From the IMG/VR virus record IMGVR_UViG_3300028275_000007: DNA of 64,000 bases, one strand, 5' to 3'. Shown piece after piece: positions 34,144-58,919 of this stretch (within the stretch, counting starts at the first letter, position 1; the number at the start of each line of letters is the position of its first letter). Made by a program: the position numbers and the translations under genes. The stretch comes from a virus. Its lineage: Duplodnaviria; Caudoviricetes. The notes under the pieces are model-generated. The model was not told the origin of the DNA. It saw only the letters and a list, made by a program, of their open reading frames with translations, and did not search any database.

Positions 34144-34581
34144 TTAATAGCTAACAAGATCATTAATAGTGTGATAGTAAGTTACGCTGTGTATTACTTT
34201 GGCGCCTTCTAACAATGTAGAATTGTCATAGGTGCTATCTTCTGGGCTGTTTGCTGGATTTATTAACACCTGTACTTTTGCTTCGTTAACCGCAGTGGAT
34301 AATTCTATTAAGTTTTCACCTAAATTAGTTTTTCCATATACTGTAACGCTGGCTGTCTCTGGTCCTGCTACAACTAATGCTTTTACAATTTCTTTTCTAA
34401 AATTTCCCACATCTACAACTATCGTGTATTCTGCTGCCATAAAATCTCCCACATACCATTCGTCAAGAACAGTACCTGGAAAAACAGACATCCACGGGCC
34501 TTTATAGGCAAAATTCACGCCGTTTTGAATACGCAGGGTATTCTTAATTCCTTGGAAAAAGTATTTTGCAAAATTGATCAT
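34144..34581 (-). CDS. Hypothetical tail-associated protein
   Basis: 145-aa beta-rich ORF after ATAAATA. Confidence 0.6.
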   Translation of the reverse strand: MINFAKYFFQGIKNTLRIQNGVNFAYKGPWMSVFPGTVLDEWYVGDFMAAEYTIVVDVGNFRKEIVKALVVAGPETASVTVYGKTNLGENLIELSTAVNEAKVQVLINPANSPEDSTYDNSTLLEGAKVIHSVTYYHTINDLVSY

Positions 34582-56581: not shown

Positions 56582-57634
56582 TTATCCTAGAGTTAATGCA
56601 AATGCAACAGAAATATCATTAGCCTGTGTTTCTGACACAGCTCCAGATGCACCTGCAGGACTAGCCCAAGAAACTCCGTCCCAAATTTCCAAAGCCTTTG
56701 AATTAGTATTATATCGTGTCATTCCGACAACCGCATAAGATGTTGGACGCTGCGCATCATTTCCTCTTGGCGGAACAAACCCATTGGTACCAACAATTTT
56801 AAGATAACCATTACCTGTATGGGTAATTGTTGTAACAGCACCGGATACTACGTTAGTAATAGAACTATCAATAATTTTAATATTACCAGTTCGTATACCT
56901 CCCGCAGCATTTCCTTCTAATCGCAAATCTGTACCAGTTGTGGTAGTAATTATGTTATCTTGAAAAATAACACTTCCTACTTCAAAATAAGGAAGGTTCA
57001 TTGAAGTAGTATATAAATCTTTAGTGTAAACAGCTCTCCATCTTACTGAACTAGAACCAATATCATATGTAGCATCAGTTTGAGGAATAATATCACTAGT
57101 AACGCTGGCATTAAAAACAATGTTATCGGTTAGTGCGTCACCAATTTGAATGTTGCCGCCGATCACTACATTTCCAGAAGTATTAATATTTCCAGAAACA
57201 TCAAGATTTCCTGTAATATTTGTACTTGCTGAAATATTAACTGTGCCGGTACCGTTTGGTGCTAGATCAATTGAACTGTTAGAAACAGTAGTAGAAATAG
57301 TATTTCCTTGTAATTGAAGATCATCAATTTGAAGTCTGCTGTGATAAACAGTTGCTTCGCCGGCAGCGGCTTGAAATACTATTGTGCTGGTATCGCTGGT
57401 AATTGTATTGCCAGTAAAGTGTAAATTACCGACATTAATTTGTGTGTCAACAGTATGATTTATACCGTGTATATTACCGTTGACATCTAGGTCTGTAGTG
57501 GGGGCTGCTGTACGTATCCCGATACGAGAGTTAACAACATCCAAATAGAGAAGATCAGTCTCAAAAGCTAAATCCACACCATCTCTGATGAGATTTGACT
57601 TTAAGAGCTGACCGGAAATACGACCAATAGCCAT
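56582..57634 (-). CDS. Tail fibre/shaft protein
   Basis: MAIGRISGQLLKSNL..DLAFETDLLYLDV; NGFVPPRG..QRP..GMTRYNT; ends VAFALTLG. Confidence 0.65.
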   Translation of the reverse strand: MAIGRISGQLLKSNLIRDGVDLAFETDLLYLDVVNSRIGIRTAAPTTDLDVNGNIHGINHTVDTQINVGNLHFTGNTITSDTSTIVFQAAAGEATVYHSRLQIDDLQLQGNTISTTVSNSSIDLAPNGTGTVNISASTNITGNLDVSGNINTSGNVVIGGNIQIGDALTDNIVFNASVTSDIIPQTDATYDIGSSSVRWRAVYTKDLYTTSMNLPYFEVGSVIFQDNIITTTTGTDLRLEGNAAGGIRTGNIKIIDSSITNVVSGAVTTITHTGNGYLKIVGTNGFVPPRGNDAQRPTSYAVVGMTRYNTNSKALEIWDGVSWASPAGASGAVSETQANDISVAFALTLG

Positions 57635-57773
57635 TAGCTCTCCTTAACAGACCCCGTGTTTCACGGTTAACCTAATTTGGACTAACGTCCGCAGCCTTAT
57701 GGCTCTTTGCTGGTTTACCACAGTCGGATCTTGCAAAAGTTTTGGTCTACCTTTGCAATTAGTAGTATTTATA
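57635..57773 (-). ncRNA. Candidate structured 5' leader RNA (~125 nt) after a perfect TATAAATA promoter
   Basis: Five hairpins plus a loop-to-RBS-proximal pairing (UAGACC/GGUCUG). Confidence 0.5.
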
Positions 57774-57785
57774 CCAAATGGAGAA

Positions 57786-58919
57786 TTAGCCGAGGACTAG
57801 GGTCCAAATGTTTCCAATATCGTACATAAGTTCTTGTGTAACTTCGATACCACCACCTGTTGCCACTGACCATACAGTACCATCAAAACATTCCAGGTAC
57901 CCTCTTTCTGTGTTGTATCTAGTTTCACCTACTTCTGGACTTAAAGGACGTTCGCTATCGGATCCGTTAGGAACAACCATACCGTTTGTACCGGTAAACT
58001 GAATGTATCCTATTCCTGTAGACTGTAATAATAAAGGATTGTTTTCTGGATTTATTATAGCATTTTCGTTAAATGCAATTTTTTCTAAGTATGTGTCTGC
58101 TGAATCGGCGGTTATTATTAAATCTTCATTGGACTGTGTTGTTGTAATTGTAGTTGTAACACCGTTAATTTCTACTTGATCACTGATATAAGCATAAGAC
58201 GTATGGATACCTAATCCTGAATTTCCTATCGAAGTCCAATCAGATTGATAAACTTTATCCCAACGCTTTGTAGGTTTCCCTAGATCATAAACTTCATTGT
58301 TACCTAAGACAATTGTTTGAGTAAAATCGGTATTAATACTAGCAGTATCAGTAGTTTGGTCACCGATAGTTAGAGTACCAATTCCTGTTAAATCTCCCTG
58401 TAACGTTATGTTCCCTGTTACAGTTAAATTTCCTGTAATGTTTGTGTCTGCAATAAAATTAACTTTGCCTGTTCCGTTAGGATCAAATACAATATTTGAA
58501 TTGCTAATACTGCTAATTTGATTATCGTTGAATATTAAACTGCTGGTAGTTAATCTATCGTGAAAAATATCACTTCCGGCTATCATAACCTGTATGCCGC
58601 CAACTGAAGTTGTAAATGTATTTCCGTTATTAATTTTAAGATTTCCAGCAATTAACTGTGTATCAACAGTTAAATTATGGCTATGAATATCTCCGTCTAC
58701 ATCTAAGTCGTAGGCAGGCGGAGATTTTTTTATACTAACTCGTTTATTTGTAACGTCAAGGTATAATAAATCAGTTTCAACAGCGATGTCAATGCCGTTT
58801 CTTTGTAGGTTAGCGGTTAATAATTTTCCACTAATTCGGCCAAGCTGAGACGAATAATTAGGTTCACTACCGTAGGTGTTTGAACCTAATAGACCGTCAT
58901 CATCGCCCAATATACCCAT
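57786..58919 (-). CDS. Tail fibre/shaft protein, paralogue of 56582..57634
   Basis: LGRISGKLLTANL..DIAVETDLLYLDV; NGMVVPNG..ERP..GETRYNT; ends WTLVLG. Confidence 0.65.
   Translation of the reverse strand: MGILGDDDGLLGSNTYGSEPNYSSQLGRISGKLLTANLQRNGIDIAVETDLLYLDVTNKRVSIKKSPPAYDLDVDGDIHSHNLTVDTQLIAGNLKINNGNTFTTSVGGIQVMIAGSDIFHDRLTTSSLIFNDNQISSISNSNIVFDPNGTGKVNFIADTNITGNLTVTGNITLQGDLTGIGTLTIGDQTTDTASINTDFTQTIVLGNNEVYDLGKPTKRWDKVYQSDWTSIGNSGLGIHTSYAYISDQVEINGVTTTITTTQSNEDLIITADSADTYLEKIAFNENAIINPENNPLLLQSTGIGYIQFTGTNGMVVPNGSDSERPLSPEVGETRYNTERGYLECFDGTVWSVATGGGIEVTQELMYDIGNIWTLVLG

Follow-up and report, generated by a model that had tools for sequence, protein, structure and literature searches.

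The DNA analyzed here, referred to as the window, is 64,000 nucleotides long and belongs to an uncultured phage whose IMG/VR record has 110 kb; the same stretch is present in riverine metagenomes. The major capsid protein shares 67-72% identity with its counterparts in the jumbo myoviruses Sinorhizobium Phosso, Vibrio 2.275.O and Pseudomonas PA5oct. ARAGORN detected no tRNA or tmRNA genes in the window. The leader that is the subject of this work is surrounded by minus-strand genes and occupies a gap of 151 nt between the stop codon of ORF 57786-58919 (377 aa) and the AUG at 57634 of ORF 56582-57634 (350 aa). The proteins encoded by these two ORFs are paralogous: they share a GRISG...ETDLLYLDV module and both end in a C-terminal LG, and the 377-aa protein has an N-terminal extension of 23 residues ahead of the module. 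Pfam and PDB sequence searches returned no relative for either protein, PHROGs matches were to families of unknown function only, and the AF2 monomer model of the 350-aa protein was poor (pLDDT 53). The 350-aa gene is followed on its 3′ side by two small genes and then by the genes of two large fibres of 1822 and 2764 aa. The 2764-aa gene may be independent of the leader, because another late-promoter-like site is located immediately 5′ of it.

An original prediction, made from the sequence of the window, described the gap as the longest GC-enriched intergenic stretch of its surroundings and as the seat of a densely structured leader. With respect to length, this description is accurate within the structural block that extends from 50 to 64 kb, but it does not apply to the window as a whole, where longer gaps exist. 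The GC content over the gap is 0.41-0.45 in 150-nt windows, compared to about 0.29-0.42 in most neighbouring windows, with a few coding stretches reaching 0.46-0.48. All complementary segments quoted in the original prediction were found on the minus strand between 57635 and 57773. The features of the locus, including those added by the comparisons described below, are the following.

57786-58919, minus strand: gene of the 377-aa fibre-like paralogue, the 5′ neighbour of the leader, with the GRISG motif at residue 27 (from the translation).
57766-57773, minus strand: T4-type late promoter box TATAAATA; all 37 aligned relatives have TAAATA, and the family form is (A/C)TAAATA.
57731-57758, minus strand: P1, a hairpin of 9 bp, almost flush with the 5′ end, strands UUGCAAAGG and CUUUUGCAA with loop UAGACCAAAA (covariation).
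57742-57747, minus strand: core of the P1 loop, GACCAA, the proposed 5′ arm of a pairing with the ORF (complementary to codons 3-5).
57717-57724, minus strand: invariant junction ACUGUGGU; in a 37-sequence alignment only one of its eight positions varies, and that one is more than 90% conserved (ACUGCGGU in one sequence).
57710-57716, minus strand: 5′ strand of P2, AAACCAG, pairing with 57669-57675.
57705-57709, minus strand: internal-loop segment CAAAG, with CAA-G invariant in the alignment; a short class has CAAUG.
57679-57704, minus strand: peripheral hairpins P2a (AGCC-AUAA-GGCU, 57693-57704) and P2b (GGAC-GUUA-GUCC, 57679-57690), from the alignment.
57669-57675, minus strand: 3′ strand of P2, UUAGGUU, with one bulged base, pairing with 57710-57716.
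57654-57666, minus strand: hairpin P3, CCGUG-AAA-CACGG; one pair swaps between CG (54) and GC (46) with zero mismatch.
57648-57653, minus strand: GGUCUG, the pseudoknot partner named in the original prediction, able to pair with the P1 loop of the window but not conserved in relatives.
57640-57643, minus strand: Shine-Dalgarno sequence GGAG, near-invariant in the alignments.
57636-57642, minus strand: Shine-Dalgarno flank GAGAGCU, which may be the 5′ strand of P4, a hairpin of the start region (paired in the minimum free energy fold of the window sequence).
57632-57634, minus strand: start codon of ORF 56582-57634, whose 350-aa fibre-like product begins MAIGRISG.
57622-57627, minus strand: UUGGUC, within codons 3-5 (I-G-R); conserved pairing partner of the P1 loop (88.5% paired, with compensatory variants).
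57603-57609, minus strand: AGCUCUU in codons 9-11, candidate 3′ strand of P4 and 3′ limit of the constraint (from codon usage).

The locus has the appearance of a T4-type late transcription unit, with a TATAAATA-like box near the predicted start and no -35 element, and a scan of the region for sigma-70 promoters gave chance-level matches only. Assuming the spacing found in T4, and considering the genes in which TAAATA-N5-ATG is found, the transcript is predicted to start at about 57760, approximately 6 nt after the box. P1 would then begin 2-3 nt from the 5′ end. The TAAATA box recurs 5′ of many minus-strand genes of the window; it lies exactly 11 nt before the ATG at the starts 23428, 17410, 15028 and 13325, and 13 nt before the ATG at 34581. 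With T4-like spacing, transcription of those genes would begin at the A of the AUG or adjoining it, and their late mRNAs are probably leaderless. The structured leader of 125 nt is exceptional because many other late genes of the window probably lack one. A further segment, UAAUUCUCCAUUUGG (57774-57785, minus strand), separates the stop codon of the upstream gene from the promoter. Its UCUCCAA is complementary to UUGGAGA at the Shine-Dalgarno sequence, and the two are paired in the minimum free energy fold; the close clade of the window retains this pairing (-7 to -10.5 kcal/mol), but the wider family does not. Since UCUCCAA is located 5′ of the late promoter, transcripts reading through from upstream could mask their own Shine-Dalgarno sequence and those initiated at the promoter could not. 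In T4, read-through transcripts of genes e and soc mask the Shine-Dalgarno sequence in this manner, and promoter-initiated ones do not.

The locus is represented in metatranscriptome contigs from river samples. Two RNA-library contigs end within the P1 loop, at 57743/57744, and another one bridges the site; some runs leave parts of the upstream gene uncovered, but such contigs cannot reveal RNA ends, strand or level. One 5.5-kb river metatranscriptome contig (run X19, record 4) matches the window only at P3 (57651-57672) and then continues into the core of the short class of the motif (the reverse complement of ACUGUGGUAAACCCGCAAUGUAAGGU), and therefore the same river data contain a second phage with the short form.

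Folding of the single sequence was better than expected by chance, with a minimum free energy of -45.9 kcal/mol (z = -2.9) and one of 200 shuffled sequences folding as well. Homologous leaders were collected through relatives of the 350-aa protein in IMG/VR (72 loci), where the leader was found by blastn 5′ of the orthologue even at 33-50% protein identity, and through a 14-base core pattern, ACTGTGGTNNNCCNNCAANG, which identified at least 119 further viral loci in IMG/VR. A covariance model, R1, was built from 37 relatives. It found exactly one copy in the window (118 bits, E 3e-28) and confirmed the full motif in 87 of 100 IMG/VR loci that had been chosen by the core pattern only. The record from which the window derives and five large contigs, including a 100%-complete genome of 357 kb, carry a single copy each, and the 377-aa paralogue gene has no structured leader of its own, as R1 found no second copy in the window. 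At least 126 distinct leader sequences were parsed in total, and each parsed motif lies directly 5′ of a gene for a MA(I/V)GRI(S/T)GPLLK protein of 350 to about 4000 aa.

The core pattern had at least 120 matches in 596 Gb of prokaryote genomes, and none of the 100 tested carries the motif, all being chance matches. Comparison of the region with 50,697 phage records by blastn gave no match, and tblastn of the N-terminal 80 aa against cultured phages gave weak matches only, in S-CAM22. When the covariance model was applied to Phosso, Vibrio 2.275.O, PA5oct, fHe-Yen9-03 and S-CAM22, no real match was obtained (best score, 21.7 bits).

A covariation check on leaders 5′ of MAIGRISG-type genes had been suggested along with the original prediction, and the signal proved to be strong for P1, P2 and P3. 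Over 100 distinct sequences, 83.9% of the cells of the three helices are paired, compared to 35-48% when the 3′ partners are slid; there are 393 cells with double-sided changes versus 122 in column shuffles, and the covariation score is 0.521 versus 0.16 or less in controls. The common occurrence of G-U pairs places the fold on the mRNA strand. These results show that the leader is a genuine conserved structured RNA, strand-specific and located in cis to one family of fibre-type genes.

The anatomy of the RNA was read from alignments A1, A3 and A5. All eight modelled pairs of P1 change on both sides, each of them showing several pair types, and 88-93% of their cells are paired in the 100 sequences. 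The consensus of the P1 loop is (N)GACCA(A), and GACC is found in the loop of 91 of 126 distinct relatives when these are parsed with RNAfold. A linker of 5-8 nt separates P1 from the junction ACUGUGGU, for which no pairing partner was found in the family alignments. The consensus of P2 is (A)ACC-N-N opposite N-N-(bulge)-GGU(U), and its covarying pairs are AU/UA/CG, AU/GC/CG and CG/AU/GU/GC, the last one being CG in 53 sequences, AU in 29, GU in 10 and GC in 8 with zero mismatch. Of the five hairpins that had been proposed, one, CUGUGG-UAAA-CCAG, has only invariant columns or columns that vary on one side, and it is replaced by the covarying long-range helix P2; both use the same CC, and they are mutually exclusive. 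The internal loop of P2, CAA(A/U)G...(G)AAA(A), holds zero, one or two peripheral hairpins, mostly of the type AGC-GNRA-GCU. About half of the relatives have P2a, whose stem is variable and whose cap is mostly GNRA. In the short class the peripheral region is reduced to the loop CAAUG(U/C)AAG, and P2a and P2b are dispensable since this class lacks both. P3 exists in two versions, CCGUG-AAA-CACGG with strand swaps or GGGA-CAGGA-UCCC with GCGA/UCGC variants, and is followed by (G)GU, a short spacer, GGAG and AUG. The family comparison revealed no conserved partner inside the leader that would sequester the Shine-Dalgarno sequence, and a scan for terminators found none in the leader. A leader peptide was also considered; an AUG is limited to the short class (as AUG-UAA or a 4-codon frame), and a peptide is therefore not conserved.

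The original prediction noted that UAGACC in the P1 loop is complementary to GGUCUG, immediately 5′ of the Shine-Dalgarno sequence, and suggested a possible pseudoknot reaching the ribosome binding site. The loop does appear to reach the translation start region, but the conserved partner is in codons 3-5 and not in GGUCUG. In the window the two pairings are equivalent (-8.4 kcal/mol with GGUCUG and -8.5 kcal/mol with the ORF). The difference emerges among 123 relatives: pairing of the P1 loop with the first 21 nt of the ORF averages -7.9 kcal/mol, with 83% of the relatives reaching -6, versus a mean of -3.4 kcal/mol and 6% for the 14 nt before the Shine-Dalgarno sequence, the region where GGUCUG lies. 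Furthermore, variants of the loop follow variants of the ORF and not those of the spacer. Pairing with GGUCUG is thus extremely improbable. UGGU of the junction was another candidate partner (mean of -4.4 kcal/mol, with 16% reaching -6 in the same 123 relatives); it is weaker than the ORF and is contradicted by the loop of one relative (L182) and by other loop variants.

In the consensus, (U/C)GACCA(A) lies opposite (U)UGGUC(G), and the individual positions of this duplex are paired in 68% to 100% of the sequences. The loops and ORFs of the relatives, in their own combinations, pair better than all 10,000 loop/ORF permutations. In a model-based alignment of 101 sequences that includes the ORF, 88.5% of the cells of the helix are paired versus 7-46% when slid. 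Double-sided changes amount to only 5 cells versus 0.5 in shuffles, and the signal consists mostly of conserved complementarity among related sequences. Several compensatory variants are nonetheless found. The ORF of L182 has UUGGAC and its loop has GUCCAA; L112 and others combine UAGGUC with GACCUA, and L128 and L190 combine CGGUC with GACCG. In L050 and L109 the Gly-Arg codons are GGA AGA, with loss of both GGUCG and GACC, and the loops UUGGUC or GUUGGU fit GGCCAA in codons 2-3; the energies with their own loops are -8.9 and -8.8 kcal/mol versus only -3.5 with consensus loops. A subclass of about 6-10 sequences (L105, L122, L133, L142, L152 and L171) has a different P1 and no GACC loop. Taken together, the comparisons strongly indicate base pairing between GACCAA of the P1 loop and UUGGUC in codons 3-5, which would enclose the Shine-Dalgarno sequence and the AUG in a large pseudoknot.

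Codon usage was compared with a background consisting of codons 60-330 of the same genes. At position 4, glycine is encoded by GGU in 95% of the sequences (background, 43%), and Arg5 is CGN in 98% (background, 45%, with AGA at 53%). The skew is also evident further downstream, with CCG at Pro9 (93% versus 10%), CUC at Leu10 (85% versus 2%) and AAG at Lys12 (80% versus 19%). In the part of the ORF that adjoins the leader, strong synonymous skew is limited to codons 4-12, and from codon 13 the entropy ratio is about 1. Selection at the nucleotide level through codon 12 is strongly indicated by this pattern and, since the constraint extends that far, the RNA element reaches about 36 nt into the gene. 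A second reversal of synonymous preference, outside the leader element, was observed at codons 25 and 27 of ORF 56582-57634 (region 57558-57563), where Glu25 is GAG in 90% versus a background of 10% and Asp27 is GAC in 74% versus 33%.

The sequence GCUCUU within codons 9-11 is complementary to the Shine-Dalgarno flank, which reads GAGAGC or AAGAG depending on the class. The resulting helix, P4, has a family mean of -8.0 kcal/mol, compared to -6.0 with shuffled flanks, and it beats permutations. Compensation was not found, however; variant ORFs pair with their own flanks at -5.0 kcal/mol and with consensus flanks at -5.4, and RNAalifold does not call P4 on the alignment of the start region. For these two reasons it is only a possibility that GAGAGC pairs with codons 9-11 to form a start-region hairpin whose loop would kiss the P1 loop.

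The leader does not correspond to a catalogued RNA in Rfam 15. No match to it was obtained when the whole window was searched at gathering thresholds, and a search of 57400-58000 at E values up to 10 returned two chance-level matches only, both outside the leader core. These results agree with the earlier statement that no riboswitch or ribozyme consensus could be recognized. One sub-threshold match, to Bacillus-plasmid RNA at 57434-57487 on the minus strand (17.5 bits versus a threshold of 31 bits, E 0.45), corresponds to a GUCAAC...GUUGAC hairpin in the ORF and is probably due to chance. The motif was also without a match in 14 related loci. Other Rfam families occur in related contigs: freshwater-2 RNAs lie 4-5 kb from the motif in three of them (L085:3374-3455, L077:4605-4692 and L133:5652-5727), and the most divergent contig, L050 (50-97 and 241-445), carries a glutamine riboswitch and a manA RNA. 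None of these three families was detected in the window at gathering thresholds. The view that the leader is an uncatalogued cis-regulatory RNA is thus supported as far as its absence from Rfam, the strong selection on its structure and its invariable location in cis before the same fibre-type gene are concerned. Control of translation or of stoichiometry in the whole downstream fibre operon, both giant fibres included, as put forward in the original prediction, would go beyond these observations.

On balance, the comparative data lead us to think that this new RNA family probably functions as a cis-acting translational operator, closing the initiation region of a late fibre mRNA. The late mRNA would start about 6 nt after TATAAATA, with P1 flush at its 5′ end, and the clamp between the P1 loop and codons 3-5 would enclose the Shine-Dalgarno sequence and the AUG in a long-range pseudoknot. 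The closed fold would make it harder for the 30S subunit to accommodate the mRNA, which would limit translation of the fibre-like gene and perhaps, by coupling, that of the genes behind it. The invariant junction between P2 and P3 could be the recognition surface for an effector that stabilizes or opens the fold. Such an effector would most likely be a protein of the phage, and the product of the regulated gene might itself fill this role through its conserved N-terminal domain. An additional function of P1, which lies at the very 5′ end, may be to protect the mRNA. A more specific proposal, which is tentative, is that the P2-P3 junction acts as a sensor, either as a small-molecule aptamer or as a site for a phage or host factor, that switches the clamp between the P1 loop and the ORF and makes translation of this fibre, and perhaps of the downstream giant fibres, conditional.

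If the sensor were of the riboswitch kind, the junction would be an aptamer for a small molecule or an ion, and the ligand would shift the pairing between the P1 loop and the ORF, tuning fibre synthesis to the state of the host or of the infection. The leader has what is structurally expected of a riboswitch, namely covarying stems together with invariant junction nucleotides in a 5′ UTR. The design is typical of aptamers, since the stems are of variable length and the GNRA-capped hairpins are dispensable, the element adjoins the ribosome binding site, and riboswitches and related RNAs are present in related contigs, as described above. The Rfam searches, however, gave no riboswitch match even at the most permissive E value, and no conserved alternative pairing (anti-Shine-Dalgarno or terminator) overlapping the junction was found. 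In addition, a metabolite logic is not obvious for a late structural gene, and two quite different versions of P3 coexist. We consider a riboswitch distinctly unlikely. The leader could also act constitutively, without any effector, the 5′-flush hairpin stabilizing the mRNA and the closed start region fixing a low rate of translation for a low-copy fibre. The distance of 2-3 nt between P1 and the predicted 5′ end would suit a stabilizer, the pairings of the loop with the ORF and of the Shine-Dalgarno flank would damp initiation unaided, and the gene is a structural one whose neighbours are leaderless or short-leadered. A plain attenuator or stabilizer, however, needs no invariant 8-nt junction, conserved internal loop or conserved P3 loop, and these features are kept across proteins that are only 33-50% identical. 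Constitutive action is therefore unlikely.

The dense structure and the invariant junction nucleotides might instead belong to a self-standing RNA, such as a trans-acting sRNA, a processing site or a self-cleaving ribozyme, that is located before the fibre gene by chance. The two metatranscriptome contigs that stop in the P1 loop could in principle mark a cleavage, but the end of a contig does not reveal an RNA end, and the site is bridged by another contig. The spacing of the motif to the Shine-Dalgarno sequence and the AUG is fixed, the constraint continues into the ORF, no terminator follows P3, and Rfam has no matching ribozyme, all of which make a self-standing RNA highly improbable. The translational operator is the reading that we favour.

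Structured leaders that control translation are known from the genes of bacterial ribosomal proteins and from a few early or middle genes of T4. To our knowledge, none has been described for late structural genes of phages. The element described here is, as a new regulatory RNA, well suited to study: it occurs once per genome and is very widespread (at least 120 distinct variants), its covariation is unusually clean, it leaves a selective footprint of 12 codons, and natural compensatory variants already point to informative mutants. Should the leader respond to an effector, jumbo phages would tune the production of receptor-binding fibres post-transcriptionally. If the junction does act as a sensor, the leader would represent a new class of regulatory RNA governing the host-recognition hardware of a freshwater jumbo phage clade. 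The covariance model can serve as an annotation marker for the start of the fibre module in this uncultured phage clade.

Like the glutamine riboswitch, manA and freshwater-2 families of Rfam, and like the csRNAs of Fremin et al. (2023), the leader is a structured RNA from uncultured phages recognized by comparative analysis. Fremin et al. reported 8,495 csRNAs from intergenic regions of IMG/VR, including regions directly upstream of genes, and their text makes no mention of tail or fibre genes (PMC10690425). The RNA family described here is new to Rfam, and an unnamed csRNA entry may overlap with it.

The leader is not homologous to those of T4 gene 32, rpsO or the alpha operon. According to a review, the pseudoknot of T4 gene 32 is possibly the only viral one used in translational autoregulation; it forms a compact H-type knot, 67 nt upstream, from which binding of gp32, an ssDNA-binding protein, is nucleated over an unstructured, A+U-rich ribosome binding site (PMC3014915). 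Both are structured elements at the 5′ end of the leader of a T4-type phage mRNA, with control known for gene 32 and proposed here. The gene 32 type of operator is not what was found in our case, in which the predicted knot is long-range and extends into the ORF, the leader is structured throughout, and the product is a fibre-like protein without a Pfam family. The closer parallel is with the E. coli operators of rpsO (S15) and the alpha operon (S4), where a loop of the leader pairs at or after the start, the knot embraces the Shine-Dalgarno sequence and the initiator codon, and the repressor stabilizes the pseudoknot, with the result that ribosomes are either blocked or trapped (PMC10931766). 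The leader is unrelated to these operators in sequence and in Rfam; they belong to ribosomal protein genes and not to a phage fibre gene, and the leader described here has an extra invariant two-hairpin junction between the arms. The likeness lies in the predicted topology: the pairing of GACCAA (57742-57747) in the P1 loop with UUGGUC (57622-57627) in codons 3-5 would give the same arrangement, with the initiation region enclosed between the arms of the knot.
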